In this document: piece by piece, positions 5,460-29,197 of the stretch
Layout: each line of letters opens with the position of its first letter
How positions within the stretch are numbered: position 1 is the first letter of the stretch
Assembly: GCF_054482525.1 (NCBI RefSeq)
Contig: NZ_CM137006.1
Length of the DNA: 64,000 bases
Strand: one strand, 5' to 3'
The notes under the pieces: model-generated
Databases searched by the model: none
Told to the model about the DNA's origin: nothing
What the model saw: only the letters and a program-made list of their open reading frames with translations
Translations under genes and position numbers: made by a program

Positions 5460-5460
5460 C

Positions 5461-6462
5461 ATGTATTGTGCAGTGTGTTTGTGTCCTGATTTTGTTGCGG
5501 CTAATATTTCTGATATTAATTTATTTAGTGGTTTTTTTATTGGAACCATTGTTAATGGTGAAAATCAGTTGATTTTAGATGCTGATGAAAAAATCCGTTT
5601 GGGCTATTTGAAATCTTGTAAAAATAACAAGGATTCTTTTTATCTGCTTCAGAAATGGGAGGCTGAATTATCTAAAGCTTCTTCAGGTAAAATATTGCTT
5701 GCACCAGTGAGTAATAGTACTGATGATATTAAGGATATAGTTGTTTGTGCAGTTGCTAACGCAGCTACCACCTTTGATAAACATATTGTGGTATTAGACA
5801 ATAATAGTTACTCTGGATATGTTGATGAATTAATTAGGCAAAGAGTTAATTTGTTAAATCTTAATAGTATAAGTTTAATATCAAAGGAGGATAGGGTGCA
5901 GCGTCCTTTGAATTTTATAAAGTTTGATAGCGATTTGTCTTGGGTGCTTCAAAGACTGGGGCGACGCTCTGCTAAAGGATATGGCGAAGATGATTTTAAT
6001 GATTTTATACGAGATATGTTATTAGCTAAAAATTATGAGGTAAAAGATCAAACTCGAGAAGGAGAGTCTCAATCGGGGAAAAAAGCCGGTGAGTTAGATC
6101 TTGTTATTGAAGATAGAGGAGAACTGTTTGCTATAATAGAAGCCTTGATTTTAAACTCTTTAGATCAAGCTAACATATTAAAGCATTATTCAAAGTTAAT
6201 TGATAACTATAATCCTATTCATGTCAAAAGGTTGTTTTTAATTGCTTATTATACAGGTGCAAAATTCGATGCCTGGTGTGAAAGATATATTGAGTATCTA
6301 AAGGGGATTACTTCGGTAGATATTGGTGTGGAATCTCATCAGATAGTTGAGGTTAAAGAAGTGGATACCCCGTACATAGGCTTAAGAAAAATTGAACATC
6401 ATTTTAGATATGCGGGGGAGCACTATTTTTGTATCCATTATGCAGTCAAAATGGCTCGGTGA
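5461..6462 (+). CDS. Hypothetical protein, 333 aa; partner of the ABC ATPase (translationally coupled); candidate effector of unknown fold
   Basis: ATG 1 nt after the ATPase stop (TGA-c-ATG); AT-rich; Cys cluster CAVCLC at N-terminus; acidic stretch GELDLVIEDRGELFAIIEAL; no motif I can assign confidently. Confidence 0.65.
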   Translation: MYCAVCLCPDFVAANISDINLFSGFFIGTIVNGENQLILDADEKIRLGYLKSCKNNKDSFYLLQKWEAELSKASSGKILLAPVSNSTDDIKDIVVCAVANAATTFDKHIVVLDNNSYSGYVDELIRQRVNLLNLNSISLISKEDRVQRPLNFIKFDSDLSWVLQRLGRRSAKGYGEDDFNDFIRDMLLAKNYEVKDQTREGESQSGKKAGELDLVIEDRGELFAIIEALILNSLDQANILKHYSKLIDNYNPIHVKRLFLIAYYTGAKFDAWCERYIEYLKGITSVDIGVESHQIVEVKEVDTPYIGLRKIEHHFRYAGEHYFCIHYAVKMAR

Positions 6463-6787: not shown

Positions 6788-7822
6788 TCAGCCGTTGTCA
6801 GTGTCCAGTGAGTAGTTTTTAAAGCGGATGACCTCCTGACCGAGCCAGCCGTTTATCTCGCGGATCCTGTCCTGTAACGGGATAAGCTCATTGCGGACAA
6901 AGACCTTTGCCACTTTCTCAATATCACCCAGCGACCCGACGTTCTCCGGCTTGCCGCCCATCAACTGAAAAGGGATGCGGTGCGCGTCCAGCAGGTCTGC
7001 GGCGCTGGCTTTTTTGATATTAAAAAAATCGTCCTTCGTTGCCACTTCACTGAGCGGGATAATTTTAATACCGTCGGCTTTTCCCTGTGGGGCGTAGAGA
7101 AACAGGTTTTTAAAGTTGTTGCGGCCTTTCGACTTCACCATGTTTTCGCGAAGCATTTCGATATCGTTGCGATCCTGCACGGCATCGGTGACGTACATGA
7201 TGTATCCGGCATGTGCGCCGTTTTCGTAATACTTGCGGCGGAACAGCGTGGCCGACTCATTCAGCCAGGCAGAGTTAAGGGCGCTGAGATATTCCGGCAG
7301 GCCGTACAGCTCCTGATTGATATCCGGCTCCAGCAGGTGAAACACGGAGCCGGGCGCGAAAGGTGTCGGCTCGTTGAAGGATGGCACCCACCAGTAAACA
7401 TCCTCCTCCACGCCACGGCGGGTATATTTTGCCGGTGAGGTTTCCAGTCTGATGACCTTACCGGTAGTGCTGTAGCGCTTTTCCAGAAACGCATTACCGA
7501 ACACCAGAAAATCCAGCACAAAGCGGCTGAAATCCTGCTGGGAAAGCCACGGGTGCGGGATAAACGTTGAGGCCAGAATATTACGTTTGACGTAAATCGG
7601 TGAGCTGTGATGCACGGCAGCACGCAGGCTTTTTGCCAGACCGGTAAAGCTGACCGGTGGCTCATACCATCTGCCGTTACTGATGCACTCGACGTAATCC
7701 AGAATATCACGGCGGTCGAGTACCGGCACCGGCTCACCAAAGGTGAATGCCTCCATTTTCGGGGCGCTGGCAGTCATTGTTTTCACCGCTGGCTGCGGTG
7801 TTTTCCCTTTTTTCTTACTCAT
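6788..7822 (-). CDS. Q: P2-like portal protein gpQ (344 aa)
   Basis: 344-aa ORF MSKKKGKTPQPAVKT..., size and position (leftward, next to cos) match P2 Q. Confidence 0.92.
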   Translation of the reverse strand: MSKKKGKTPQPAVKTMTASAPKMEAFTFGEPVPVLDRRDILDYVECISNGRWYEPPVSFTGLAKSLRAAVHHSSPIYVKRNILASTFIPHPWLSQQDFSRFVLDFLVFGNAFLEKRYSTTGKVIRLETSPAKYTRRGVEEDVYWWVPSFNEPTPFAPGSVFHLLEPDINQELYGLPEYLSALNSAWLNESATLFRRKYYENGAHAGYIMYVTDAVQDRNDIEMLRENMVKSKGRNNFKNLFLYAPQGKADGIKIIPLSEVATKDDFFNIKKASAADLLDAHRIPFQLMGGKPENVGSLGDIEKVAKVFVRNELIPLQDRIREINGWLGQEVIRFKNYSLDTDNG

Positions 7823-16039: not shown

Positions 16040-16825
16040 TTATGAGTGATTTTTATTTGATGCTTTGTATTCTACAACCTTCTTATTGGCGTAAAGGAAT
16101 TTTGTATATGACAGGAATATAACCAGACCTGAAATGAAATAGATGAGGGATATTATTAATAATGCTTTTTTTTGGCTGTTATTATCTTTAATCTCCTGAC
16201 TTAACCATTCCGAGTCCTCCTCGTTTAGCTGTAAGAGATTATTGCAGGCGATCTCAGGAAGTGTGTCTTTTATAAATACGTTTCGTAGCCTCTTGCAATC
16301 GGCAAGGCTATAAGTTTTATTGAATTCAACTGTTTTATTGTTGAAGGATAAAAGAACTTTGTCACTATAAACATAGTACATCATATTTTTATATGGTATG
16401 CCTATGGCATCTCTTACTATAGCGGATTGTTTGTTGTGTATATAACATGCGAAGAGAATATAAATAATGCTGGACAGAATTACAATTATTGTTTTAATTA
16501 TGTGTGGTGGTTTTGTTATGTCACCCCAGAAGCGAGTAAGAAAAAAATACGATGTTTTTAGTTTTCCATCAATCAGCCCCTGCTGTATCATTCTCACATC
16601 TTCGATGCCTGATACATTGATTCCGTTAATTATTTTAAATAGTTGAATGTCGCGCCATTTTTTGTCGAGCATTTTTAACTTTCTGTCTGAATACTCAAAA
16701 TTGAAATGATGTGCAATAAACCTCATAAGATTACTTTTACCAAAGGTAACAAATGTTAATGCTATTAATAAAAATAGATACAAAGAGATAAACCACCACG
16801 CATTAGTCACATTATCACTGAACAT
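16040..16825 (-). CDS. Moron: predicted membrane protein (261 aa, about three hydrophobic segments) in the S-V intergenic slot
   Basis: Opposite strand to the late operons; strongly AT-rich, Lys/Asn/Ile-rich; hydrophobic segments WWFISLYLFLLIALTFVTF, IIKTIIVILSSIIYILFACYI, ALLIISLIYFISGLVIFLSY. Confidence 0.7.
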   Translation of the reverse strand: MFSDNVTNAWWFISLYLFLLIALTFVTFGKSNLMRFIAHHFNFEYSDRKLKMLDKKWRDIQLFKIINGINVSGIEDVRMIQQGLIDGKLKTSYFFLTRFWGDITKPPHIIKTIIVILSSIIYILFACYIHNKQSAIVRDAIGIPYKNMMYYVYSDKVLLSFNNKTVEFNKTYSLADCKRLRNVFIKDTLPEIACNNLLQLNEEDSEWLSQEIKDNNSQKKALLIISLIYFISGLVIFLSYTKFLYANKKVVEYKASNKNHS

Positions 16826-16908
16826 TACGCTCTCCTCGAATGTTGTATGGTCGTTCTACAAATGAATCCAGATAGCATAACTTTTATATATTGTGCAATC
16901 TCACACGC

Positions 16909-17544
16909 ATGAACACTCTCGCAAATACTCAGGAACTCGCGCGCGCACTGCGCAACATGATCCGCACCGGCCTTGTCGTCGAAACCGACCTTAATGCCGG
17001 TCGCTGCCGTGTGCAGACCGGCGGCATGTGCACCGACTGGCTTCAGTGGCTGACCCATCGCGCCGGGCGTTCGCGCACATGGTGGGCACCTTCCGTGGGG
17101 GAACAGGTGCTGATTCTGGCCGTGGGTGGTGAACTCGACACGGCGTTCGTTCTGCCGGGGATTTATTCCGGCGATAACCCCGCGCCGTCTGCGTCGGCGG
17201 ATGCCCTGCATATCCGTTTCCCTGACGGGGCGGTGATTGAGTATGAACCTGAAACCAGCGCGCTCACGGTAAGCGGAGTTAAAACGGCCAGCGTGACGGC
17301 TTCTGATTCTGTTACTGCCACGGTGCCGGTGGTCATGGTGAAAGCATCAACCCGCATCACCCTGGACACGCCGGAGGTGGTCTGCACCAACAGGCTGATT
17401 ACCGGCACGCTGGAAGTACAGAAGGGCGGGACGATGCGCGGCAACATTGAACACACCGGCGGTGAACTCTCATCAAACGGTAAGGTACTGCATACCCATA
17501 AACACCCCGGCGACAGCGGCGGCACAACAGGGAGTCCTCTATGA
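16909..17544 (+). CDS. V: P2-like baseplate spike protein gpV (211 aa)
   Basis: Start at MNTLANTQELARALRNMIRTG (ATG 16909); 211 aa. Confidence 0.9.
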   Translation: MNTLANTQELARALRNMIRTGLVVETDLNAGRCRVQTGGMCTDWLQWLTHRAGRSRTWWAPSVGEQVLILAVGGELDTAFVLPGIYSGDNPAPSASADALHIRFPDGAVIEYEPETSALTVSGVKTASVTASDSVTATVPVVMVKASTRITLDTPEVVCTNRLITGTLEVQKGGTMRGNIEHTGGELSSNGKVLHTHKHPGDSGGTTGSPL

Positions 17545-17888
17545 CAGCGCGTTATCTCGGAATGAATCGCAGTGATGGCCTGACTGTCACTGACCTTGAG
17601 CATATCAGCCAGAGTATCGGCGATATCCTGCGCACACCGGTCGGCTCACGGGTGATGCGTCGTGATTACGGCTCGTTGCTGGCATCAATGATTGACCAGC
17701 CGCAGACCCCGGCGCTTGAGTTGCAGATTAAGGTCGCCTGTTACATGGCGGTGCTGAAATGGGAACCCCGCGTCACCCTGTCATCCGTCACCACTGAGCG
17801 CAGTTTTGACGGGCGAATGACGGTCACGTTAACCGGCCAGCACAACGACACCGGCCAGCCACTTTCGTTAACCATCCCTGTGAGTTGA
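17541..17888 (+). CDS. W: P2-like baseplate protein gpW (115 aa)
   Basis: 115-aa ORF, overlapping V stop. Confidence 0.9.
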   Translation: MTARYLGMNRSDGLTVTDLEHISQSIGDILRTPVGSRVMRRDYGSLLASMIDQPQTPALELQIKVACYMAVLKWEPRVTLSSVTTERSFDGRMTVTLTGQHNDTGQPLSLTIPVS

Positions 17889-17892
17889 AACC

Positions 17893-18801
17893 ATGCCGAT
17901 TATCGACCTGAACCAGCTACCCGCACCGGATGTGGTCGAGGAGCTGGACTTTGAAACCATTCTTGCCGAACGCAAGGCGACACTGATTTCCCTTTACCCG
18001 GAAGACCAGCAGGAGGCGGTCGCCCGTACCCTGACGCTGGAATCCGAGCCTCTCGTCAAACTGCTGGAGGAAAATGCTTATCGTGAGCTTATCTGGCGTC
18101 AGCGTGTGAATGAGGCCGCACGGGCGGTGATGCTGGCCTGTGCCGCCGGTAATGACCTTGATGTGATTGGTGCCAATTACAACACCACGCGCCTGATTAT
18201 CACTCCGGCAGATGATTCGACTATCCCGCCGACACCGGCAGTGATGGAATCTGACACCGATTATCGTCTGCGTATTCAGCAGGCGTTTGAGGGCTTAAGC
18301 GTCGCCGGGTCGGTGGGGGCCTATCAGTATCATGGTCGCAGTGCTGACGGGCGTGTCGCGGATATCTCTGTCACCAGTCCGTCTCCGGCCTGCGTCACCA
18401 TCTCCGTGCTGTCACGTGAAAATAACGGCGTCGCATCCGAAGACCTGCTGGCCGTGGTGCGTAACGCCCTTAATGGCGAGGACGTCAGGCCGGTGGCCGA
18501 CCGCGTGACCGTGCAGTCTGCCGCCATCGTTGAATACCAGATAAACGCCACGCTGTATCTTTACCCTGGTCCCGAAAGCGAACCCATTCGCGCTGCCGCC
18601 GTGAAAAAACTGGAAGCGTATATCACGGCACAGCACCGGCTGGGGCGCGACATCCGTCTGTCTGCCATTTATGCCGCTTTGCATGTGGAAGGCGTGCAGC
18701 GTGTCGAACTGGCTGCACCGCTGGCCGACATCGTGCTCAACAGTACGCAGGCGTCTTTCTGTACCGAATACAGCGTCGTGACCGGAGGCTCGGATGAGTG
18801 A
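17893..18801 (+). CDS. J: P2-like baseplate assembly protein gpJ (302 aa)
   Basis: 302-aa ORF; P2 order. Confidence 0.9.
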   Translation: MPIIDLNQLPAPDVVEELDFETILAERKATLISLYPEDQQEAVARTLTLESEPLVKLLEENAYRELIWRQRVNEAARAVMLACAAGNDLDVIGANYNTTRLIITPADDSTIPPTPAVMESDTDYRLRIQQAFEGLSVAGSVGAYQYHGRSADGRVADISVTSPSPACVTISVLSRENNGVASEDLLAVVRNALNGEDVRPVADRVTVQSAAIVEYQINATLYLYPGPESEPIRAAAVKKLEAYITAQHRLGRDIRLSAIYAALHVEGVQRVELAAPLADIVLNSTQASFCTEYSVVTGGSDE

Positions 18802-19405
18802 TTCGCGACTGCTGCCGACCGGCTCATCGCCGCTTGAAGTCGCCGCCGCAAAAGCCTGTGCGGAAATTGAAAAAACGCCGGTCAGTATTCGTGAGCTGTG
18901 GAACCCGGATACCTGTCCGGCAAATCTGCTGCCGTGGCTGGCGTGGTCATTTTCGGTTGACCGCTGGGATGATAAGTGGCCGGAAGCGACAAAACGCGCT
19001 GTTATCCGCGATGCGTATTTCATTCACTGCCATAAGGGCACTATAGGCGCAATCCGGCGTGTGGTGGAGCCGCTCGGCTATCTGATTGAGGTGAGGGAGT
19101 GGTGGCAGCTCAACGAGGAGCCGGGGACGTTCCGCATCGTTGTTGGCGTGCTTGAGCAGGGTATTACCGAGGAAATGTATCAGGAGCTGGAGCGCCTCGT
19201 TGCTGATGCAAAACCGGCAAGCCGCCATCTGACGGGACTGGCTATCAGTTTAAGTACAACCGGCAACATTTTTGCCAGTGCGGGATGCTATCACGGTGAC
19301 GCCCTGACGGTTTATCCCTACACCCCGGAGGCCATTATTGTCGGAGGGGATTATTTCCCGGCCTCGGCCATTCATTTAATTGATAACCTGAGAGTAAACG
19401 CATGA
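18794..19405 (+). CDS. I: P2-like baseplate protein gpI
   Basis: ORF overlapping J end and H start; exact start codon uncertain. Confidence 0.8.
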   Translation: MSDSRLLPTGSSPLEVAAAKACAEIEKTPVSIRELWNPDTCPANLLPWLAWSFSVDRWDDKWPEATKRAVIRDAYFIHCHKGTIGAIRRVVEPLGYLIEVREWWQLNEEPGTFRIVVGVLEQGITEEMYQELERLVADAKPASRHLTGLAISLSTTGNIFASAGCYHGDALTVYPYTPEAIIVGGDYFPASAIHLIDNLRVNA

Positions 19406-20700
19406 CAGTGAAATACTACGCCATTCTGACTAATCAGGGCGCAGCACGGCTGGCTAACGCGACGATGCTCGGCAGTAAGCTGAATCTGACGCAAATGGCC
19501 GTTGGTGATGCGAATGGTGTCTTGCCGACACCAGACCCGGCACAGACAAAACTGATTAATCAGAAACGCATCGCGCCGCTGAATCTTCTGAGTGTTGACC
19601 CGAACAACCAGAGCCAGATTATTGCGGAGCAAATCATCCCTGAGAACGAGGGCGGATTCTGGATCCGTGAGATTGGGCTTTATGATGATGAAGGCGTACT
19701 CATTGCGGTGGCGAACTGCCCGGAAACGTACAAACCGCAGTTACAGGAAGGCAGCGGTCGTACCCAGACTATCCGCATGATTCTGGTTGTCACGAATACC
19801 GAAGCCATCACGCTGAAAATCGACCCGTCGGTGGTACTGGCGACCCGTAAATACGTGGATGATAAAGTCCTGGAATTAAAGCTGTATGTGGATGACCAGA
19901 TGAGAAACCACATTGCCGCACAGGATCCTCATACCCAGTATGCACAGAAACATAATCCGACATTTACCGGAGAACCAAAAGCGCCGACGCCTGCCGCAGG
20001 AAATAACACCACGCGGATTGCGACCACTGCGTTTGTACAGGCCGCTATTACCGCTCTGATTAACGGTGCCCCTGACACGCTGGACACACTGAAAGAAATT
20101 GCCGCAGCTATCAACAATGACCCGAAATTCAGCACCACCATTAACAATGCGCTGTCAGGTAAGCAGCCACTGGATGAGACGCTGACTCATTTGAGTGGAA
20201 AGGATGTTGCCGGTCTTCTCGCATACCTTGGTTTGGGAGAAGGCTCTGCATTGCCGGTTGGTGTGCCTGTTCCGTGGCCTTCAGCCACTCCGCCAACGGG
20301 GTGGCTAAAATGTAACGGAGCAGTATTTTCTTCTGAAAAGTACCCAAATCTGGCAAAGGCTTACCCAACATTAAAATTACCAGATTTACGCGGTGAATTT
20401 ATTCGTGGCTGGGATGATGGGCGCGGGATTGACTCTGGTCGTAACTTATTATCTGCACAGAATGATGCAATTCAGAATATTGTTGGTTCTTTTGGGCGTA
20501 CCCAGCTTTTTAGAGACGTACTTAGTTCAGGGCCATTTAGTCAACATGGGCAAGTATTATCTACAGGTCTAAAGGAAGCCGAAATTATTGAGGGTTATGG
20601 CGCTTATAACTGGACATTCGACGCATCTCGCTCAGTTCGCACAGCATCTGAAACCCGCTCCCGTAACATCGCCTTTAATTATATTGTGAGGGCTGCATGA
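19402..20700 (+). CDS. H: Tail fibre protein gpH (432 aa): P2-like constant N-terminus fused to the currently expressed variable C-terminal cassette
   Basis: N-terminus MTVKYYAILTNQGAARLANA...; C-terminal region (WPSATPPTGWLKCNGAVFSSEKYPNLAKAY...LPDLRGEFIRGW) is tail-collar-like; inversion crossover site lies at codons ~276-280. Confidence 0.88.
   Translation: MTVKYYAILTNQGAARLANATMLGSKLNLTQMAVGDANGVLPTPDPAQTKLINQKRIAPLNLLSVDPNNQSQIIAEQIIPENEGGFWIREIGLYDDEGVLIAVANCPETYKPQLQEGSGRTQTIRMILVVTNTEAITLKIDPSVVLATRKYVDDKVLELKLYVDDQMRNHIAAQDPHTQYAQKHNPTFTGEPKAPTPAAGNNTTRIATTAFVQAAITALINGAPDTLDTLKEIAAAINNDPKFSTTINNALSGKQPLDETLTHLSGKDVAGLLAYLGLGEGSALPVGVPVPWPSATPPTGWLKCNGAVFSSEKYPNLAKAYPTLKLPDLRGEFIRGWDDGRGIDSGRNLLSAQNDAIQNIVGSFGRTQLFRDVLSSGPFSQHGQVLSTGLKEAEIIEGYGAYNWTFDASRSVRTASETRSRNIAFNYIVRAA
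20228..20242. repeat. Left inversion crossover site of tail-fibre segment (inside H)
   Basis: TTGGTTTGGGAGAAG; perfect inverted copy at 22160-22174; weak resemblance to gix/hix half-sites. Confidence 0.6.
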
Positions 20701-21302
20701 TAAGTAAAGCTGTATTAAATAATGAACTCATCGCCACAAAGGCCGGAGACATTACCGTTTATAATTATGATGGTGAAACACGGGAATATATTTCCACATC
20801 AACTGAATATCTTGCTGTGGGTGTCGGTATCCCGGCATGTTCCTGTTTAGATGCTCCTGGCTCATATAAAGCTGGTTATGCAATTTGCCGTTCTGCAGAT
20901 TTTAACTCATGGGAATATGTGCCAGACCATCGCGGTGAAATCGTCTATAGCACCGAAACAGGAGAATCAAAAGAAATCACAGTTCCGGGTGATTACCCTG
21001 AAAATACAACCACTATCGCCCCGTTAACGTCATACGATAAATGGGATGGTGAGAAATGGGTGACCGATACTGAGGCACAGCATAACGCCGCAGTAGACGC
21101 GGCAGAAGTACGGCGCCAGTCACTGATTGATGCTGCTATGGCTTCCATTAGTCTGATTCAGCTGAAATTGCAGGCCGGGCGGAAGCTGACGCAGGCAGAA
21201 ACAACCCGGCTTAACGCTGTGCTGGATTACATTGACGCGGTGACTGCAACAGATACCAGCACCGCGCCGGATGTCATCTGGCCTGAACTACCGGAGGCGT
21301 AG
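20697..21302 (+). CDS. G: Tail fibre assembly chaperone gpG (Tfa), currently expressed orientation
   Basis: 201-aa ORF directly after H; C-terminal ...TATDTSTAPDVIWPELPEA typical of Tfa proteins. Confidence 0.85.
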   Translation: MISKAVLNNELIATKAGDITVYNYDGETREYISTSTEYLAVGVGIPACSCLDAPGSYKAGYAICRSADFNSWEYVPDHRGEIVYSTETGESKEITVPGDYPENTTTIAPLTSYDKWDGEKWVTDTEAQHNAAVDAAEVRRQSLIDAAMASISLIQLKLQAGRKLTQAETTRLNAVLDYIDAVTATDTSTAPDVIWPELPEA

Positions 21303-21717
21303 GCCATTCAATATCTGGAGCACTGGCGGTATCAACCAGTTCCAGTGCGTCCAGATAATCCAGCCATAAATTATATTGTTCCAGCTCGTAACCTTTCAGA
21401 CGACCAATAGCAGCTTTGCCAGGCCACTGATGGGTATTGATGTAGGTATTGACTTCTGAAACCAAAGATATCTTTTTCATTTCAGCCGCCAGCATCTCAT
21501 CCTCTTTTGAAGGCGGCGGGGAATTAATCCATATTGGCCGTCCTGAACTGTCAGCGCCAATTTCTTTCCCTTCTGGATGCAGCCCAAGAAATTGCTCATA
21601 TGTTTCTCTGGTAATTTCAATAACATCATCAGGAAGCGTTCCCGCATCCTCATATTCTGGAAACAATTCTTGCAGATAAAAACTTTTACTTGCGGGTGAA
21701 AAGAATACTGAGTTCAT
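21274..21717 (-). CDS. Alternative tail fibre assembly chaperone (Tfa') for the inverted orientation
   Basis: 147-aa reverse-strand ORF; C-terminus ...DTASAPDIEWPTPPVVQAR parallels gpG; convergent with G and overlapping its 3' end. Confidence 0.75.
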   Translation of the reverse strand: MNSVFFSPASKSFYLQELFPEYEDAGTLPDDVIEITRETYEQFLGLHPEGKEIGADSSGRPIWINSPPPSKEDEMLAAEMKKISLVSEVNTYINTHQWPGKAAIGRLKGYELEQYNLWLDYLDALELVDTASAPDIEWPTPPVVQAR

Positions 21718-21719
21718 TC

Positions 21720-22159
21720 TTACCGTCCAATGATTAACGCTGAGACGCTGGTATCTGAAGGAAAGGCTGCATTCAGTGGTTTGTCGACTTTGAACACAAT
21801 CGTATTATTCCCCCTGACAGCGGCAAAAGAACAAACCGCCGTCGCGTATGAACCTGTAATATTACTGGATACACCACCATAAGCTGTTGTTGATACCAGA
21901 GGGATAACGCCCAGCACCTTATTAGGAAATACAAAGGGCAATGTGGCTGTGGCAATATAAGACTTATTAGAACCTGTAATGGCATAAGCATTATCAGTCA
22001 TTCCATTCATCGCCACTGGACCGCTTATACTTACAGTAACCATCTGAATGATTAGCCCGTCAGGTTGACGAATCACAAAATTTCCATTGCCACCAGTAAC
22101 CGTCCAGAAAGACATATCAGGGATTTGGTTTTCCCCGTTGCCCACATTTCGTTTTGCCG
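21720..22159 (-). CDS. Alternative (currently silent) tail-fibre C-terminal cassette, promoterless, expressed only after inversion
   Basis: Reverse-strand reading frame continuous from the right crossover site; shares the GLGE junction frame with H; no independent start expected. Confidence 0.65.
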
Positions 22160-22174
22160 CTTCTCCCAAACCAA
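22160..22174. repeat. Right inversion crossover site of tail-fibre segment
   Basis: CTTCTCCCAAACCAA, exact reverse complement of 20228-20242. Confidence 0.6.
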
Positions 22175-22241
22175 CGTTTAAGAAAATGCAGAGATTACGG
22201 CTAACTGGCATCATCCCCGGTTTTTATTCAGGGGATCCATC

Positions 22242-22835
22242 ATGCTTATTGGCTATGTCCGCGTGTCAACAAATGACCAGAATACGGAATTGCAGCGTAA
22301 CGCGCTGGAGTGTGCAGGATGTGAGCTTATTTTTGAGGATAAAATCAGCGGCACGAAGTCCGACCGACCGGGACTGAAAAAACTGCTCAGGACATTATCG
22401 GAGGGGGATACACTGGTGGTCTGGAAGCTGGACCGGCTGGGGCGTAGTATGCGGCATCTGGTCATTCTGGTTGAGGAACTGCGCGAACGCGGCGTTAATT
22501 TTCGCAGCCTGACGGATGCTATTGATACCAGCACGCCGATGGGGCGTTTTTTCTTTCATGTGATGGGTGCCCTGGCTGAAATGGAGCGAGAACTCATTGT
22601 CGAGAGGACACGCGCCGGACTGGAAGCGGCCAGAGCCAAAGGTCGTATTGGTGGCAGACGACCGAAACTCACCGCGAGTGAGTGGGAGCAGGCCGGGCGT
22701 TTGCTGGCTGCAGGGGAGTCACGTCAACGCGTGGCACTGATTTTTGATATTGGTCTGTCCACGCTCTATAAAAAATTTCCCTCATCAGCGACAAAGAATA
22801 AATTGTGTCATCCCTTAGCCAACCGGGACAAATAG
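22242..22835 (+). CDS. Serine recombinase, DNA invertase of the Pin/Gin/Hin/Cin family (197 aa)
   Basis: N-terminal catalytic domain MLIGYVRVSTNDQNTELQRNAL (active-site Ser in YVRVST), C-terminal HTH; positioned just outside the right crossover site. Confidence 0.9.
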   Translation: MLIGYVRVSTNDQNTELQRNALECAGCELIFEDKISGTKSDRPGLKKLLRTLSEGDTLVVWKLDRLGRSMRHLVILVEELRERGVNFRSLTDAIDTSTPMGRFFFHVMGALAEMERELIVERTRAGLEAARAKGRIGGRRPKLTASEWEQAGRLLAAGESRQRVALIFDIGLSTLYKKFPSSATKNKLCHPLANRDK

Positions 22836-22894: not shown

Positions 22895-24085
22895 ATGAGT
22901 GACTATCATCACGGCGTGCAGGTGCTGGAGATTAACGACGGCACCCGCGTCATTTCCACCGTATCCACTGCCATTGTCGGCATGGTCTGCACGGCCAGCG
23001 ATGCGGATGCGGAAACCTTCCCCCTCAATAAACCTGTGCTGATTACCAATGTGCAGAGCGCAATTGCAAAGGCCGGTAAAAAAGGCACGCTGGCGGCATC
23101 GTTGCAGGCCATCGCTGACCAGTCAAAACCGGTCACCGTTGTCGTGCGCGTGGAAGACGGCACTGGTGATGACGAGGAAACGAAACTCGCGCAGACCGTT
23201 TCCAATATCATCGGCACCACCGACGAAAACGGTCAGTACACCGGACTGAAAGCCCTGCTGGCGGCGGAGTCGGTAACCGGTGTTAAACCGCGTATTCTCG
23301 GTGTGCCGGGACTGGATACCAAAGAGGTGGCTGTTGCACTGGCATCCGTCTGTCAGAAGCTGCGCGCTTTCGGATATATCAGCGCGTGGGGCTGTAAGAC
23401 TATTTCCGAGGTGAAAGCCTACCGCCAGAATTTCAGCCAGCGTGAGCTGATGGTCATCTGGCCGGATTTCCTCGTATGGGATACGGTCACCAGTACCACC
23501 GCCACCGCGTATGCCACCGCCCGTGCACTGGGGCTGCGTGCCAAAATCGACCAGGAGCAGGGCTGGCATAAAACGCTGTCCAATGTCGGGGTGAACGGTG
23601 TTACCGGCATCAGCGCATCTGTATTCTGGGATTTGCAGGAGTCCGGCACCGATGCTGACCTGCTTAACGAGTCAGGTGTCACTACGCTGATTCGCCGCGA
23701 CGGTTTCCGCTTCTGGGGTAACCGTACCTGCTCTGATGACCCGCTGTTCCTCTTTGAAAACTACACCCGCACCGCGCAGGTGCTGGCCGACACGATGGCT
23801 GAGGCGCACATGTGGGCGGTGGACAAGCCCATCACCGCAACGCTGATTCGCGACATCGTTGACGGCATCAATGCCAAATTCCGTGAGCTGAAAACAAACG
23901 GCTATATCGTGGATGCGACCTGCTGGTTCAGCGAAGAATCCAACGATGCGGAAACCCTCAAGGCCGGAAAACTGTATATCGACTACGACTATACACCGGT
24001 GCCTCCTCTTGAAAACCTGACCCTGCGCCAGCGTATTACCGATAAATACCTGGCAAATCTGGTCACCTCGGTTAACAGCAATTAA
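22895..24085 (+). CDS. FI: P2-like contractile tail sheath protein gpFI (396 aa)
   Basis: 396-aa ORF MSDYHHGVQVLEINDGTRVIS...; P2 size and order. Confidence 0.93.
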   Translation: MSDYHHGVQVLEINDGTRVISTVSTAIVGMVCTASDADAETFPLNKPVLITNVQSAIAKAGKKGTLAASLQAIADQSKPVTVVVRVEDGTGDDEETKLAQTVSNIIGTTDENGQYTGLKALLAAESVTGVKPRILGVPGLDTKEVAVALASVCQKLRAFGYISAWGCKTISEVKAYRQNFSQRELMVIWPDFLVWDTVTSTTATAYATARALGLRAKIDQEQGWHKTLSNVGVNGVTGISASVFWDLQESGTDADLLNESGVTTLIRRDGFRFWGNRTCSDDPLFLFENYTRTAQVLADTMAEAHMWAVDKPITATLIRDIVDGINAKFRELKTNGYIVDATCWFSEESNDAETLKAGKLYIDYDYTPVPPLENLTLRQRITDKYLANLVTSVNSN

Positions 24086-24097
24086 GGAGCCTGACCG

Positions 24098-24616
24098 ATG
24101 GCAATGCCGCGCAAACTCAAGTTAATGAACGTCTTTCTGAACGGCTACAGCTATCAGGGCGTCGCGAAGTCCGTCACGCTACCAAAACTGACCCGTAAGC
24201 TCGAAAACTATCGCGGTGCGGGGATGAACGGCAGCGCACCGGTAGACCTCGGCCTTGATGACGATGCGCTGTCAATGGAGTGGTCGCTCGGTGGCTTCCC
24301 GGATTCGGTTATCTGGGAGCTTTACGCCGCAACCGGTGTGGATGCCGTACCGATTCGTTTTGCAGGCTCTTACCAGCGCGACGATACCGGCGAAACGGTG
24401 GCCGTCGAGGTGGTCATGCGTGGACGTCAGAAAGAAATCGACACCGGCGAGGGCAAACAGGGAGAAGACACCGAGTCGAAAATCTCCGTGGTCTGCACCT
24501 ATTTCCGGCTGACGATGGACGGTAAGGAGCTGGTCGAAATCGACACCATCAACATGATTGAGAAGGTGAACGGCGTCGACCGGCTGGAGCAACACCGCCG
24601 CAATATCGGCCTGTGA
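24098..24616 (+). CDS. FII: P2-like tail tube protein gpFII (172 aa)
   Basis: 172-aa ORF after FI. Confidence 0.92.
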   Translation: MAMPRKLKLMNVFLNGYSYQGVAKSVTLPKLTRKLENYRGAGMNGSAPVDLGLDDDALSMEWSLGGFPDSVIWELYAATGVDAVPIRFAGSYQRDDTGETVAVEVVMRGRQKEIDTGEGKQGEDTESKISVVCTYFRLTMDGKELVEIDTINMIEKVNGVDRLEQHRRNIGL

Positions 24617-24672
24617 TTTTCATCCGGTCAGCCTGACTGACCGGTTAACCCCGATTCAGAAGTGAGAAAACC

Positions 24673-24948
24673 ATGAACAAAGAAAATGTGATTACCCTGG
24701 ACAATCCGGTCAAGCGTGGTGAGCAGGTTATCGAACAGGTCACGCTGATGAAACCTAATGCCGGGACGCTGCGCGGTGTCAGTCTGGCAGCGGTCGCGAA
24801 CTCCGAAGTCGATGCACTGATTAAGGTGTTGCCGCGCATGACGGCACCGATGCTGACCGCGCAGGAAGTCGCCGCACTGGAACTGCCTGACCTTGTGGCG
24901 CTGGCCGGTAAGGTGGTCGGTTTTTTGTCGCCGAACTCGGTGCAGTGA
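24673..24948 (+). CDS. E: P2-like tail assembly chaperone gpE (91 aa)
   Basis: 91-aa ORF; contains slippery run GGTTTTTTG near its 3' end. Confidence 0.88.
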   Translation: MNKENVITLDNPVKRGEQVIEQVTLMKPNAGTLRGVSLAAVANSEVDALIKVLPRMTAPMLTAQEVAALELPDLVALAGKVVGFLSPNSVQ

Positions 24949-25100
24949 CGTTTCCGAAAAATCTCTCGGTCGATGACCTGATGGCGGATGTGGCAGTGAT
25001 ATTTCACTGGCCGCCATCAGAACTGTATCCCATGAGCCTGACCGAACTCATCACATGGCGCGAAAAGGCGCTCCGGCGAAGCGGAAACACGAATGAGTAA
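24673..25100 (+). CDS. E+E': gpE+E' extended tail chaperone made by programmed -1 frameshift at TTTTTTG (~24917-24925)
   Basis: -1 frame is open from the slippery site to TAA at 25098-25100, overlapping the T start; analogous to P2 E/E' and lambda G/GT. Confidence 0.6.
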
Positions 25101-27540
25101 CAATGTAAAATTACAGGTATTGCTCAGGGCTGTTGACCAGGCATCCCGCCCGTTTAAATCCATCCGTACAGCGAGCAAATCGCTGTCGGGGGATATCCGG
25201 GAAACACAAAAATCACTGCGCGAGCTGAACGGTCACGCATCCCGTATTGAGGGATTTCGCAAGACAAGTGCACAGCTCGCCGTGACTGGTCATGCACTTG
25301 AAAAGGCTCGGCAGGAAGCCGAAGCCCTTGCCACACAGTTTAAAAACACCGAACGTCCGACCCGTGCTCAGGCGAAAGTGCTGGAATCCGCAAAGCGTGC
25401 GGCGGAGGACTTACAGGCGAAATATAACCGCCTGACGGATTCCGTTAAACGCCAGCAGCGGGAACTGGCCGCTGTGGGAATTAATACCCGCAATCTTGCA
25501 CATGATGAGCAGGGACTGAAAAACCGTATCAGTGAAACCACCGCACAGATTAACCGTCAGCGTGACGCGCTGGCGCGTGTCAGTGCGCAACAGGCCAAAC
25601 TTAACGCAGTCAAACAGCGTTATCAGGCCGGAAAAGAACTGGCAGGAAATATGGCCTCAGTGGGCGCTGCCGGTGTGGGGATTGCTGCTGCGGGAACGAT
25701 GGCTGGTGTTAAGTTGCTGATGCCCGGTTATGAGTTTGCGCAGAAAAACTCAGAATTGCAGGCTGTGCTCGGTGTGGCAAAAGACTCCGCCGAAATGGCT
25801 GCACTACGCAAGCAGGCGCGCCAGCTCGGTGACAATACTGCCGCCTCGGCGGATGATGCAGCCGGTGCACAGATTATCATTGCGAAAGCCGGTGGGGATG
25901 TTGATGCCATTCAGGCGGCAACGCCGGTCACGCTGAATATGGCACTGGCGAACCGCCGCACGATGGAGGAAAACGCCGCCCTGCTGATGGGGATGAAATC
26001 CGCCTTTCAGCTTTCAAACGATAAAGTCGCTCATATCGGGGATGTTCTCTCCATGACGATGAACAAAACCGCCGCCGATTTTGACGGCATGAGCGATGCG
26101 CTGACCTATGCCGCACCTGTGGCAAAAAATGCCGGTGTCAGCATTGAAGAAACCGCCGCAATGGTCGGGGCGCTGCATGATGCAAAAATAACAGGCTCAA
26201 TGGCGGGGACGGGAAGCCGTGCCGTGTTAAGCCGCCTGCAGGCACCGACGGGAAAAGCATGGGATGCACTCAAAGAGCTTGGTGTGAAAACCTCAGACAG
26301 TAAGGGAAACACCCGACCAGTATTTACCATTCTGAAAGAAATGCAGGCCAGTTTTGAGAAAAACCGGCTCGGTACTGCCCAGCAGGCTGAATACATGAAA
26401 ACCATTTTCGGGGAGGAGGCCAGCTCAGCCGCCGCCGTGCTGATGACTGCCGCGTCAACCGGAAAGCTGGACAAACTGACCGCTGCGTTTAAAGCCTCAG
26501 ACGGGAAGACCGCAGAGCTGGTAAATATCATGCAGGACAACCTCGGCGGTGACTTTAAGGAGTTTCAGTCCGCTTATGAGGCGGTGGGGACTGACCTGTT
26601 TGACCAGCAGGAAGGCGCACTGCGTAAGCTCACACAGACGGCCACAAAGTATGTGTTAAAACTCGACGGCTGGATACAGAAAAACAAATCACTGGCGTCA
26701 ACCATTGGCCTCATTGCCGGTGGCGCGCTGGCGCTGACTGGCATCATCGGTGCAATTGGTCTTGTAGCCTGGCCGGTTATCACCGGCATCAATGCCATCA
26801 TCGCGGCAGCAGGCGCAATGGGGGCAATCTTCACGACGGTTGGCAGTGCCGTTATGACGGCCATCGGGGCGATTAGCTGGCCGGTTGTGGCCGTGGTGGC
26901 CGCTATTGTCGCCGGGGCGTTACTTATCCGTAAATACTGGGAGCCTGTCAGCGCATTCTTTGGCGGAGTGGTTGAAGGGCTGAAAGCGGTATTTGCGCCG
27001 GTGGGGGAACTGTTCACGCCACTTAAGCCGCTGTTTGACTGGCTGGGTGAAAAGTTACAGGCCGCGTGGCAGTGGTTTAAAAACCTGATTGCCCCGGTTA
27101 AAGCCACCCAGGACACCCTGAACCGTTGCCGTGACACGGGCGTCATGTTCGGGCAGGCACTGGCTGACGCGCTGATGCTGCCGCTTAATGCGTTCAACAA
27201 ACTGCGCAGTGGTATTGACTGGGTACTGGAAAAACTCGGTGTTATCAACAAAGAGTCAGACACACTTGACCAGACCGCCGCCAGAACTCAAGCCGCCACA
27301 TATGGCAGCGGTGATTATATTCCGGCGACCAGCTCTTATGCAGGCTATCAGGCTTATCAGCCGGTCACGGCACCGGCTGGCCGCTCTTATGTAGACCAGA
27401 GTAAAAACGAATATCACATCAGCCTGACGGGTGGTACTGCGCCGGGGACACAGCTTGACCGCCAGTTACAGGATGCGCTCGAAAAATACGAGCGGGATAA
27501 ACGTGCGCGCGCCCGTGCCAGCATGATGCATGACGGTTAA
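25093..27540 (+). CDS. T: P2-like tail tape measure protein gpT (815 aa)
   Basis: 815-aa Ala/Gly-rich coiled-coil protein; P2 size and order. Confidence 0.93.
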   Translation: MSNNVKLQVLLRAVDQASRPFKSIRTASKSLSGDIRETQKSLRELNGHASRIEGFRKTSAQLAVTGHALEKARQEAEALATQFKNTERPTRAQAKVLESAKRAAEDLQAKYNRLTDSVKRQQRELAAVGINTRNLAHDEQGLKNRISETTAQINRQRDALARVSAQQAKLNAVKQRYQAGKELAGNMASVGAAGVGIAAAGTMAGVKLLMPGYEFAQKNSELQAVLGVAKDSAEMAALRKQARQLGDNTAASADDAAGAQIIIAKAGGDVDAIQAATPVTLNMALANRRTMEENAALLMGMKSAFQLSNDKVAHIGDVLSMTMNKTAADFDGMSDALTYAAPVAKNAGVSIEETAAMVGALHDAKITGSMAGTGSRAVLSRLQAPTGKAWDALKELGVKTSDSKGNTRPVFTILKEMQASFEKNRLGTAQQAEYMKTIFGEEASSAAAVLMTAASTGKLDKLTAAFKASDGKTAELVNIMQDNLGGDFKEFQSAYEAVGTDLFDQQEGALRKLTQTATKYVLKLDGWIQKNKSLASTIGLIAGGALALTGIIGAIGLVAWPVITGINAIIAAAGAMGAIFTTVGSAVMTAIGAISWPVVAVVAAIVAGALLIRKYWEPVSAFFGGVVEGLKAVFAPVGELFTPLKPLFDWLGEKLQAAWQWFKNLIAPVKATQDTLNRCRDTGVMFGQALADALMLPLNAFNKLRSGIDWVLEKLGVINKESDTLDQTAARTQAATYGSGDYIPATSSYAGYQAYQPVTAPAGRSYVDQSKNEYHISLTGGTAPGTQLDRQLQDALEKYERDKRARARASMMHDG

Positions 27541-27554
27541 GGAGGTGACGAAAA

Positions 27555-28034
27555 ATGATGCTCGCGTTAGGTATGTTTGTTTTTATGCGCCAGACGCTGC
27601 CACACCAGACCATGCAGCGTGAATCAGATTATCGCTGGCCGTCAAATTCCCGTATCGGTAAACGGGATGCCTTTCAGTTTCTCGGTGTTGGCGAGGAAAA
27701 CATCACGCTTGCCGGTGTGCTTTATCCCGAGCTGACCGGCGGAAAGCTGACGATGACCACGCTCAGGCTGATGGCAGAGGAAGGTCGGGCGTGGCCGTTG
27801 CTGGATGGCACCGGCATGATTTACGGCATGTATGTCATCAGCAGGGTGAGTGAAACAGGGAGTATTTTCTTTGCAGACGGCACACCCCGAAAAATTGATT
27901 TTACGCTGTCGCTCACCCGCGTTGATGAATCACTGGCCGCGCTTTATGGCGATATCGGTAAACAGGCGGAATCGCTCATCGGTAAGGCTGGCAGTATGGC
28001 GACTAAATTCACGGGTATGACGGGGGCGGGATAA
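27555..28034 (+). CDS. U: P2-like tail protein gpU (159 aa)
   Basis: 159-aa ORF after T. Confidence 0.9.
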   Translation: MMLALGMFVFMRQTLPHQTMQRESDYRWPSNSRIGKRDAFQFLGVGEENITLAGVLYPELTGGKLTMTTLRLMAEEGRAWPLLDGTGMIYGMYVISRVSETGSIFFADGTPRKIDFTLSLTRVDESLAALYGDIGKQAESLIGKAGSMATKFTGMTGAG

Positions 28035-29197
28035 TGCTGGATGCGCTGACATTTGATGCAGGCAGTACGCTGACGCCGGATTACATGCTGATGCTCGACA
28101 GCAGGGATATTACCGGCAATATCAGCGACCGTCTGATGAGCATGACTCTGACGGATAACCGGGGCTTTGAGGCTGACCAGCTTGATATTGAACTGAACGA
28201 TGCCGACGGGCAGGTCGAACTGCCGGTTCGTGGCGCTGTCCTGACGGTGTATATCGGCTGGAAAGGTTTTGCCCTGGTATGCAAAGGGAAATTCACCGTT
28301 GATGAGGTAGAGCACCGGGGCGCGCCGGATGTGGTCACCATCCGGGCCCGGAGTGCAGATTTTCGTGGCACGCTCAATTCCCGCCGTGAAGGCTCCTGGC
28401 ATGACACCACGCTCGGTGCGATTGTTGAGGCGATAGCCTCCCGTAACAGGCTGGAAGCCAGTGTCGCTCCATCACTGGCCGGAATTAAAATCCCGCACAT
28501 CGACCAGTCGCAGGAGTCTGATGCTAAATTCCTGACCCGTCTTGCTGAACGCAACGGCGGTGAGGTGTCGGTAAAAATGGGAAAACTGCTGTTTCTCAAA
28601 GCGGGGCAGGGGGTGACGGCCAGCGGTAAAAAAATCCCGCAGATTACCATCACCCGCAGCGACGGCGACCGCCATCATTTTGCGATTGCTGACCGTGGAG
28701 CCTATACCGGCGTAACGGCAAAGTGGTTACACACCAAAGACCCGAAGCCACAAAAGCAGAAGGTAAAACTGAAGCGCAAAAAGAAAGAGAAACACCTGCG
28801 CGCACTGGAGCACCCGAAAGCAAAACCGGTCACGCAGAAGAAAGTGCCAAAAGTACCGGAAGCGCGCGAAGGTGAATACATGGCCGGTGAGGCTGACAAC
28901 GTTTTTGCCCTGACTACGGTATATGCCACGAAAGCGCAGGCCATGCGCGCCGCTCAGGCGAAGTGGGATAAACTGCAACGGGGTGTGGCGGAGTTCTCCA
29001 TCAGCCTGGCTACCGGTCGGGCAGATATTTACACGGAAACGCCGGTCAAGGTATCAGGCTTTAAGCGCGTCATAGACGAGCAGGACTGGACAATCACTAA
29101 GGTGACACATTTTCTGAATAATAGCGGCTTCACGACGTCCTTAGAGCTTGAGGTCAGGCTTTCTGATGTGGAGTACGAAACAGAAGATGATGAGTGA
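28034..29197 (+). CDS. D: P2-like tail protein gpD (387 aa)
   Basis: 387-aa ORF after U. Confidence 0.9.
   Translation: MLDALTFDAGSTLTPDYMLMLDSRDITGNISDRLMSMTLTDNRGFEADQLDIELNDADGQVELPVRGAVLTVYIGWKGFALVCKGKFTVDEVEHRGAPDVVTIRARSADFRGTLNSRREGSWHDTTLGAIVEAIASRNRLEASVAPSLAGIKIPHIDQSQESDAKFLTRLAERNGGEVSVKMGKLLFLKAGQGVTASGKKIPQITITRSDGDRHHFAIADRGAYTGVTAKWLHTKDPKPQKQKVKLKRKKKEKHLRALEHPKAKPVTQKKVPKVPEAREGEYMAGEADNVFALTTVYATKAQAMRAAQAKWDKLQRGVAEFSISLATGRADIYTETPVKVSGFKRVIDEQDWTITKVTHFLNNSGFTTSLELEVRLSDVEYETEDDE

Follow-up and report, generated by a model that had tools for sequence, protein, structure and literature searches.

Mu, P1, e14 and p15B have provided examples of invertible tail-fibre segments since the 1980s. 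In the 64-kb window that we analysed, the whole stretch of DNA under study, a P2-like prophage of Escherichia coli carries a tail-fibre gene, H, with one arm of an inverted repeat inside it, raising the question of whether the adjoining DNA can be flipped so that one constant region is joined to either of two fibre ends. We find that the locus is best read as a two-state switch in which site-specific DNA inversion changes tail-fibre specificity, a reading to which we assign a probability of about 90%. The structural parts of a Gin/Cin/Pin-type tail-fibre switch, namely paired sites, in-frame fusions both ways, two tip and chaperone cassettes and an adjoining invertase, are all there and undamaged. 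Switches of this kind are not new, having been both published and annotated in P2-like prophages of E. coli.

Two alternative fibre ends and their reading frames

The prophage has a full head, lysis and tail gene set, with its left end outside the window. Its tail module follows the P2-type order V-W-J-I-H ... FI-FII-E-T-U-D (ORFs 16891-20700 and 22895-29197), colinear relatives are annotated with baseplate V, GPW/gp25, baseplate J, tail protein I, sheath and tube, and a Peduovirus record matches with 92% identity and 72% of the query covered. The fibre gene is part of the P2 late operon, where it is placed after baseplate gene I and before the tail sheath gene. A search of the DNA preceding the sheath gene gave no exact Ogr-type TGT-N12-ACA dyad, the closest being TGTGTCATCCCTTAGCCA (22805-22822) with one mismatch. 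Among chromosomal relatives the nearest is strain 19KM1776; its P2-like prophage occupies the same site but lacks the invertible module, which makes it unusable as an isogenic orientation control. Between the constant part of H and the right end of the segment we distinguish the following coding features:

19402-20241, plus strand: constant part of H (residues 1-280), an open reading frame that joins either variable end
20242-20700, plus strand: variable fibre end Sv, a collar-type receptor-binding end (Pfam Collar, PF07484), expressed in the orientation found
20697-21302, plus strand: tfa, the chaperone gene for Sv, 201 aa, TfaE type (PHROG 105, phrog_105, E 3.5e-98)
21274-21717, minus strand: tfa', 147 aa, chaperone partner of the silent end (PHROG 188, phrog_188, E 7.9e-53)
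21720-22160, minus strand: silent alternative fibre end S'v, 146 aa, without an N-terminal part of its own; the H C-terminus after inversion

As found, H spans 19402-20700 and encodes 432 aa that match the tail protein PHROG 327 (E 2.4e-210), with Pfam Phage_tail_fib (PF12571) covering residues 1-150 (E 2.5e-62). The original prediction had proposed comparing the variable C-termini with known receptor-binding domains. Sv carries the Collar domain at residues 287-334 of H (E 1.6e-14) and matches the sequences of two solved structures, the short tail fibre 9cuy (3.8e-23) and T4 gp37 2xgf (9.8e-15), while S'v matches PHROG 12714 (1.5e-47), weaker tail-fibre PHROGs and, weakly, Pfam Gp53-like_C (E 0.0015). 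Judged by these matches, the two tips are unrelated domains; the position of S'v and its fibre PHROG matches suggest that it too binds a receptor. Both tfa genes match tail-fibre-assembly PHROGs, bearing out the claim that two sets of fibre C-terminus and Tfa chaperone converge here. The start of tfa overlaps the stop codon of H (ATGA), and the 3' ends of tfa and tfa' overlap by 29 nt. A PDB sequence search returned no solved-structure relative for the alternative tip or either chaperone; the lone match for the 147-aa chaperone, a pentatricopeptide protein (E 0.005), we judged to be due to chance. In NCBIfam the fibre and chaperone proteins had no matches, and the invertase none above the curated cut-offs.

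The frames on the two sides of the segment are in phase. At the site H reads ...AYLGLGE followed by GSALP..., and the silent minus-strand frame reads ...NVGLGE followed by AAKRNVGNGENQ..., in agreement with the L-G-L-G-E and V-G-L-G-E readings given for the two sites in the original prediction. Inverting 20243-22159 in silico yields an uninterrupted 426-aa H' in which ...AYLGLGE is joined to AAKRNVGNGENQ..., so that the fibre gene is open both ways, as 432 aa in the orientation found and as 426 aa when inverted. Stop codons are absent from the silent cassette, and neither a frame nor a stop codon blocks the fusion, as had been anticipated; an intact invertase gene lies at 22242-22835, just outside the interval originally described. 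Genomes with the other orientation annotate the fused gene as a 426-aa 'phage tail protein', and the 'hypothetical protein' that RefSeq relatives place at 21720-22214 is the silent fibre end and no free-standing gene.

Crossover sites, invertase and candidate enhancer

Recombination at this locus would involve two sites, an enzyme and possibly an enhancer, which we place as follows:

20216-20241, minus strand: left crossover site inside H, 26 bp, reading TTCTCCCAAACC-AA-GGTATGCGAGAA on the minus strand; core dinucleotide 20228-20229
22161-22186, plus strand: right crossover site, 26 bp, reading TTCTCCCAAACC-AA-CGTTTAAGAAAA; core dinucleotide 22173-22174
22242-22835, plus strand: small serine DNA invertase of the Pin/Gin family, 197 aa, outside the invertible segment and adjoining it
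22263-22349, no strand assigned: candidate Fis-dependent recombinational enhancer at the 5' end of the invertase gene, predicted from G-N13-C cores

The segment had been described as bounded by a 15-bp perfect inverted repeat. That repeat is real: the 15-mer TTGGTTTGGGAGAAG occurs at 20228-20242 on the plus strand and as its exact reverse complement at 22160-22174, with no further exact copy in 64 kb. Allowing up to two mismatches gave three matches against 0.10 expected, a count reached in 0 of 100 shuffles. With imperfect pairing the repeat can be followed over 27 nt (20216-20242 and 22160-22186, 81% complementarity), and it is not merely the 15-bp repeat but a larger, 26-bp element that forms the functional site. 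Both sites have the form TTCTCCCAAACC-AA-N12, inverted with respect to each other and partly palindromic, with an identical AA core; read as dyads, their outer halves agree with the inner half at 10 of 12 positions (20216-20241) and 8 of 12 (22161-22186). The third match, at 3985-3999, was considered as an additional site, such as would occur in multi-inversion systems of the kind seen in p15B Min or in the four-variant locus of enteropathogenic E. coli (EPEC), and was rejected because it is 16 kb distant and, with its two mismatches, lacks the AAACC core context.

The arrangement recurs in related loci. The right site starts 81 nt 5' of the invertase ATG, and among 79 related IMG/VR loci most of those whose upstream sequence can be read have a site 80-81 nt 5' of this codon. 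Most of the loci with a long enough upstream stretch also have an inverted partner site, usually 1.5-2.5 kb upstream, and the left-site outer half GGTATGCGAGAA is found again in most P2-type loci.

The full-length invertase has Ser9, wild-type Met114 and an intact C-terminal helix-turn-helix. It matches PHROG 125 (DNA invertase, E 6.4e-101) and, over residues 1-182, the Gin structures 3uj3/4m6f (E 1.6e-94); sequence identity is 86% with PinE and 77% with Mu Gin. It also retains K46, K47 and R50 as well as a Q-x-x-R-L motif (EQAGRLL), which we take to be the putative equivalents of Hin residues 47/48/51 and 151/154/155. These Hin residues are reported as unique to Fis-dependent invertases (McLean et al. 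2013, PMC3798978).

Fis dependence would imply an enhancer, and in Mu this element lies within the 5' coding DNA of gin (Kahmann et al. 1985, cited in PMC3798978). In the corresponding part of the invertase gene we found Fis-like G-N13-C cores centred at 22270 and 22319 and at 22294 and 22342, that is, in pairs 48-49 bp apart at +29/+78 and +53/+101, which recur at matching positions in Mu gin although G-N13-C is a common pattern in any case; the +53/+101 pair is absent from e14 pinE. The proximal candidate is about 97 bp from the right site, and in the Hin system the distance from site to enhancer is about 100 bp (PMC3798978). Across 60 distinct homologues, third codon positions vary least over the initial ~100 nt of the invertase gene, a gradient that could reflect mosaic ancestry instead of an enhancer. 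A Fis-bound enhancer probably lies within this initial stretch.

By analogy with Gin and Hin, invertase dimers would bind 20216-20241 and 22161-22186, and the two sites would come together on the Fis-bound enhancer. Ser9 would then cut all four strands at the AA core, half of the tetramer would turn through 180 degrees, and the strands would rejoin with ~1.94 kb inverted. The state found would produce H(1-280) with the collar-type tip, made with the TfaE-type chaperone, and the inverted state H(1-280) with the unrelated 146-aa tip, made with its own chaperone. With two alternative fusions, particles from a lysogen population would therefore be expected to carry one tip or the other and to adsorb to different receptors. 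The anatomy of the locus, its open frames, the intact enzyme and sites and the two orientations among natural genomes are demonstrated by the sequences themselves. Inversion in the studied strain, its dependence on Fis and the difference in receptor are all things that we infer, and host-range prediction for the prophage must allow for two fibre tips.

Orientation in natural genomes and rival explanations

Public E. coli genomes hold the segment both ways: 66 are colinear with the orientation found and 37 with the predicted inverted form, whose breakpoints fall exactly in the repeat, counts which indicate that the module is widely active or was recently active. Genome YZ3E2001 follows our in-silico inverted sequence in a single piece over 2517 of 2517 nt at 98.5%. 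Its Tfa, Tfa' and invertase proteins are identical to those of SC492, and the segment is flipped between the two; aligned with each other, their flanks run colinear on the plus strand, the inner 1950 bp match on the minus strand at 99.8%, and the junctions fall inside the 15-bp repeat. Genomes with this invertase family (WP_000905108.1), whose members in the IMG/VR loci L008-L030 are 98-100% identical, likewise hold the segment either way. Both orientations thus occur among natural E. coli genomes, and the assembled sequence of the studied strain shows one.

This single orientation in the window would also be expected if an intact-looking segment no longer inverted, so that the lysogen made only the collar-type fibre or none at all; the invertase could be unexpressed, the enhancer defective or the prophage unable to make particles. 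A promoter scan found no sigma-70-like site above threshold between the right site and the invertase ATG, in a search whose overall match counts were no higher than those in shuffles, and the prophage's left end is beyond the window. Decay of the module does occur, as the invertase of the 'phage P2' record KC618326 (strain T22) is truncated to 164 aa and lacks the DNA-binding domain. Here, however, the enzyme is full length and keeps all the catalytic and presumed Fis-contact residues that we checked, the inner halves and cores of both sites are identical, the silent cassette has remained free of stop codons, and the genomes with this invertase family carry the segment in either orientation. 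We therefore regard a frozen relic as unlikely.

Differences in orientation might instead have arisen by horizontal replacement of the cassette or by general recombination, without the invertase. The same segment is indeed joined to both P2-type and e14/lambdoid-type constant parts, indicating that modules have been exchanged between phages. Against this origin, the SC492 and YZ3E2001 sequences differ by a clean inversion between colinear flanks, and the 15 bp within which their junctions fall are far below the usual length for RecA-type recombination. Inversion at such sites has, moreover, been seen directly in clonal cultures (PMC4272514), and we consider an origin without the invertase extremely improbable.

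A further possibility is that one of the fusion products serves the host, besides or instead of altering host range, as a fibre-derived block to the adsorption of other phages. According to Kirigo et al. (2025, PMC12529663), inversion of the e14 P segment yields StfE2, a protein that prevents T2 from adsorbing. The expressed tip here is of the StfE type (56% identity), and its chaperone is 91% identical to TfaE. In this prophage, however, the fibre gene belongs to a P2 late operon within a full complement of head, lysis and tail genes, and P2 late genes, whose transcription depends on Ogr, are silent in lysogens; the location of the gene makes expression of a fibre fusion in the lysogen unlikely. 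Such a host-serving product is accordingly rated very unlikely, and there is a slight chance, reasoning from e14, that the switch toggles host defence in addition to the host range of the phage, through a fusion that blocks competing phages.

Relation to known inversion systems

For the inversion switch that we favour, the nearest counterpart is the P segment of e14 in E. coli K-12 with its invertase Pin (stfP-tfaP / tfaE-stfE / pinE), reportedly described by Plasterk and van de Putte in 1985. The original prediction had likened the locus to the Mu G and P1 C segments embedded in a P2-like tail module; the invertible fibre switch and the P2-type genes stand, and the closest relative by sequence, with e14 and Mu compared, is e14 rather than Mu G or P1 C, because it has the same inner half-sites and AA core as found here and the invertase is closer to PinE than to Gin. 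The e14 pix sites (locus L003) share the inner half TTCTCCCAAACC and AA core with both sites here, the invertase-proximal e14 site has a 1-nt mismatch to 22161-22186, and the gene layout is the same down to the 29-nt overlap of convergent tfaP and tfaE. TfaE is the counterpart of the Sv chaperone, and the identity of Sv with StfE given above applies to the StfE variable part.

The two systems differ in what surrounds and fills the segment. The e14 constant part is the lambdoid StfP, in contrast to the P2-type H in a P2-like tail operon here, and since the constant parts differ so does the left-site outer half, which is GGTATGCGAGAA here and GGTTTTCGAGAG in e14. The silent tip is unrelated to StfP, and its chaperone is 54% identical to TfaP. 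PinE has 184 aa as against 197 aa for the invertase here, whose C-terminal tail is 13 residues longer; its last 11 codons are P2 backbone sequence. In length, by contrast, the two segments are alike, at ~1.94 kb here and a reported 1797 bp in e14 (PMC12529663).

The Mu G segment with Gin follows the same logic, with Sc-Sv-U and U'-S'v between inverted sites and the invertase gene just outside, and the leader and 5' coding DNA of gin are conserved with the invertase gene here. Its segment is longer, however, at ~3 kb, the gix core is GA instead of AA, the fibre ends and U chaperones have no detectable similarity to those here, and the phage backbone is another one.

Among P2-like phages, pro483, 500465-2 and the 'P2' of strain T22 are annotated with a tail module of the P2 type that includes H, a pair of tfa genes and, located between the fibre genes and the sheath gene, a DNA invertase. 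Across this 3.4-kb stretch the maximum coverage listed for phage records is 74%, none in the collection reaching 80%, and fibre cassettes are shuffled between P2-like relatives. Inversion of e14 and of the segments in two P2-like prophages of EPEC E2348/69 has been demonstrated by sequencing and PCR (Goldberg et al. 2014, PMC4272514), and in these EPEC prophages whole-genome sequencing and PCR found both forms coexisting in clonal cultures (PMC4272514). The locus here has two sites and two variants, as against three and four, respectively, at one of the EPEC loci.

Salmonella Hin is an enzyme of the same family that acts at 26-bp hix sites, also with an AA core, through a mechanism, presumably common to both, that depends on Fis and an enhancer (PMC3798978). 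There, however, it is a promoter that flips, with hin and the enhancer inside the segment; here a coding end would flip, and the invertase gene lies outside.

Architecture of the invertible segment

The invertible tail-fibre segment in the window is a known kind of system, correctly read as such by the original prediction. Goldberg et al. (2014) documented inversion, with PCR confirmation, for the e14 segment of E. coli K-12 and for segments in two P2-like prophages of EPEC E2348/69 (with two and four variants), and read them as tail-fibre switches (PMC4272514); families enriched at programmed inversions include tail-fibre and tail-fibre-assembly genes (Milman et al. 2023, PMC9881135). The segment here is preceded by V, W, J and I and followed by sheath, tube, E, tape measure, U and D; this gene order, and tail-gene identities agreeing with annotated relatives, bear out the predicted P2-like tail module.

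Features of the segment, in window coordinates
19402-20700, plus strand: fibre gene H (432 aa); P2-type N-terminal domain (PF12571, E = 2.5e-62) and, in the expressed end, Collar domain (PF07484, residues 287-334, E = 1.6e-14)
20241 down to 20216: left crossover site, read outward from the segment, TTCTCCCAAACC-AA-GGTATGCGAGAA
20697-21302, plus strand: tfa (201 aa), chaperone gene of the expressed end; PHROG 105, E = 3.5e-98; start overlaps the H stop
21274-21717, minus strand: tfa' (147 aa), chaperone gene of the silent end; PHROG 188, E = 7.9e-53
21720-22160, minus strand: silent fibre end; tail-fibre PHROGs and, in Pfam, a weak Gp53-like_C match (E = 0.0015)
22161-22186: right crossover site, read outward from the segment, TTCTCCCAAACC-AA-CGTTTAAGAAAA
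22242-22835, plus strand: invertase (197 aa), aligning with Mu Gin structures

The perfect 15-bp inverted repeat expected to bound the segment was located at both ends: TTGGTTTGGGAGAAG occupies 20228-20242 (plus strand) and is matched base for base by its reverse complement at 22160-22174, with no further exact copies in the 64-kb window. At up to two mismatches the window holds 3 hits against 0.10 expected, a number reached in 0 of 100 shuffles. In a repeat finder each arm grows to 27 nt (20216-20242 and 22160-22186), the two being 81% complementary. Each crossover site spans 26 bp and consists of two partly symmetric 12-bp halves flanking an AA core, the same format as hix, gix and pix sites (hix sites are 26 bp; PMC3798978). 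The left site falls at H residue 280, immediately upstream of the Collar domain, and the right site begins 81 nt 5' of the invertase ATG.

Between the sites lie two convergent sets of fibre end and chaperone gene, as proposed, the chaperone of the plus-strand set matching PHROG 105 and that of the minus-strand set PHROG 188. The open frame of the silent end continues across the right site up to a fortuitous ATG at 22214. Flipping 20243-22159 in silico yields an H of 426 aa that reads AYLGLGE and then AAKRNVGNGENQ, with tfa' starting two bases after it. Because this inverted H reads through, both orientations are open, with a chaperone gene directly 3' of each fibre end. The claimed in-frame fusion is therefore correct, and neither a stop codon nor a frame change blocks it in silico.

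The invertase and a candidate enhancer

Residues 1-182 of the invertase align to Mu Gin crystal-structure sequences (E = 1.6e-94), and the protein is 86% identical to PinE of e14 and 77% to Gin. Its C-terminal DNA-binding region is complete, and it carries K46, K47 and R50 and the motif EQAGRLL, which are the putative counterparts of Hin residues 47/48/51 and 151/154/155. These Hin positions are conserved only among Fis-dependent invertases (McLean et al., PMC3798978). Also present are Ser9, the residue that in Gin makes the covalent DNA link, and a wild-type Met114, the position at which M114V abolishes the Fis dependence of Gin (PMC3575834). A sigma-70-like scan from the right site to the ATG found no invertase promoter at the scan threshold.

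By homology with Gin and Hin (PMC3798978, PMC3575834), invertase dimers would bind each crossover site and be assembled into a tetramer by a Fis-bound enhancer; Ser9 would then cut four strands at the core, and a 180-degree subunit rotation followed by religation would leave the DNA inverted. Mu has its stimulating site inside the invertase gene (Kahmann et al. 1985, as cited in PMC3798978). Here, the invertase gene aligns closely with gin and pinE over its opening ~130 nt, a stretch that contains Fis-like G-N13-C cores at +29/+78 and +53/+101, the same positions as in gin. The nearer candidate lies ~97 bp from the right site; in Hin, ~100 bp separate site and enhancer (PMC3798978). In a set of 60 distinct homologues, entropy at third codon positions runs at 0.44-0.73 over the first ~100 nt, at ~0.7-1.0 mid-gene and mostly at 1.2-1.35 from ~nt 360 onward. 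Core positions, spacing and entropy gradient would fit, if loosely, a candidate Fis enhancer in the 5' end of the gene. G-N13-C cores are common in general, the pair at +53/+101 is absent from e14 pinE, and the gradient could come from mosaic ancestry rather than an embedded cis element.

Both orientations among genomes

A 600-nt chimera was made from the H constant part and the predicted inverted junction, 300 nt each; at least 80% of it was covered in 14 complete E. coli genomes, with identities of up to 98.8% for matches in one piece. The native junction matched 232 genomes at that coverage. Of the genomes colinear with 2517-nt queries that span both junctions, 66 follow the native form and 37 the in-silico inversion; among the latter, YZ3E2001 matches the inverted form across 2517/2517 nt in a single piece at 98.5%. 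In SC492 (native) and YZ3E2001 the two chaperones and the invertase have the same protein accessions; the flanks of the two strains align on the plus strand and the inner 1950 bp on the minus strand at 99.8%, with overlap of the alignment ends confined to the repeat. In USDA5905 (O55:H7) the breaks fall at the same places, 20242 and 22160 in window coordinates. The hexamers AGAGCC and TGCCGC, just inside the sites, trade sides between forms as inversion predicts, while the outer half-sites stay unmoved. It is the comparison of genomes, not the window's own strain, that points to inversion at these sites.

Cassette replacement or general recombination would scarcely account for these forms, given that the breakpoints are exact and that inversion has been directly observed in clonal cultures (PMC4272514). 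Somewhat less remote, though improbable, is a frozen relic that no longer inverts. Such decay does occur: in KC618326 ('Escherichia phage P2' of O157:H43 strain T22; locus L005, 4495-4989) the invertase loses similarity past residue ~129 and stops at 164 aa, lacking a DNA-binding domain, and that segment is probably locked. In the window, by contrast, the silent cassette is intact, as are the enzyme and the two sites. A host-defence role resembling that of e14 StfE2 (PMC12529663) would be compatible with a fibre switch, but is very unlikely for an H within the P2 late operon.

Four IMG/VR contigs (L017, L029, L054, L062) are palindromic about the segment, running invertase (minus), segment, invertase (plus); the flanks of L017 are sheath-gene copies at 99.5-100% identity. 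An assembler makes such contigs when a culture holds both orientations, and these palindromes are probably artefacts of assembly and, indirectly, a sign of mixed populations. Separately, the segment (20228-22177) is 99.7-99.8% identical to loci L002 and L007, while the flanking tail genes reach only 97.4-98.9%; judged from these identities, the segment may either have been swapped more recently than its flanks or be under stronger constraint.

Relatives and prophage setting

The e14 element has the same layout, with stfP-tfaP, then tfaE-stfE on the opposite strand, then pinE, and its tfa genes overlap by 29 nt, as do tfa and tfa'. Its sites, TTCTCCCAAACC-AA-GGTTTTCGAGAG and TTCTCCCAAACC-AA-CGTTTATGAAAA, share inner halves and core with those of the window, and the invertase-proximal one differs from our right site by one base. 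Identity is 91% between TfaE and the 201-aa chaperone, 56% between StfE and the collar end and 54% between TfaP and the 147-aa chaperone, whereas StfP is unrelated to the second fibre end. Mu follows the same switch logic, but with a segment of ~3 kb, a GA core, and fibre ends and chaperones that have no detectable similarity to those here.

Among 79 related IMG/VR loci with an invertase, a site 80-81 nt 5' of the invertase ATG is present in most whose upstream sequence is readable; most that extend far enough also show its inverted partner, as a rule 1.5-2.5 kb upstream. For the outer half of the left site there are two main classes, GGTATGCGAGAA (P2-type H) and GGTTTTCGAGAG (e14 type); the module is therefore shared between phage types, joined at the site. 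Phage records such as pro483, 500465-2 and 'P2' of strain T22 are annotated with the same gene set, DNA invertase included.

In e14-like or lambdoid prophages (locus L042; E. coli hits H59-H61 and H83-H85) the same cassette pair occurs with another constant part and with an invertase of PinE type, 180 aa long. In L042 the fibre ends and chaperones are 99-100% identical to those here; in the E. coli hits, similarity to the window begins at query position 275, ~10 nt short of the crossover site. Two such copies, in opposite orientations, are present in strain CD45. In the IMG/VR loci L075 and L042 the invertase is preceded by at least three site copies of mixed orientation, and these loci are candidate multi-inversion systems like the four-variant EPEC locus.

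To the right of the prophage lie the host genes yegP, yegQ, baeSR and mdtABCD, by which the window belongs to an E. coli chromosome, 99.5% identical to that of strain 19KM1776. Similarity to that strain (locus L006) stops at 19227 inside gene I and restarts at 22803; its P2-like prophage, at the same chromosomal site, has a 917-aa H, a single tfa and no invertase. The swapped module therefore comprises the rest of gene I, the whole of H, the segment and the invertase. The final 11 invertase codons sit in the P2 backbone, just upstream of the sheath gene, and so the C-terminal tail is longer than that of PinE.

A 261-aa ORF (16040-16825, minus strand) stands just before baseplate gene V, antiparallel to the adjoining tail genes and presumably at the position of P2 orf30. 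Many of its codons specify Ile, Asn, Lys or Phe, and its product resembles a membrane protein; PADLOC gave no match for it. Just left of portal gene Q (6788-7822, minus strand), a two-gene cassette (3792-6462) occupies the position of the P2 old/tin cargo hotspot. PADLOC returned no match for its second gene (333 aa, 5461-6462); the first encodes a 555-aa ABC/AAA-type ATPase matching NsnB (1.9e-52), HEC-03B, PDC-M55A and AriA, and the cassette is probably anti-phage defence cargo.
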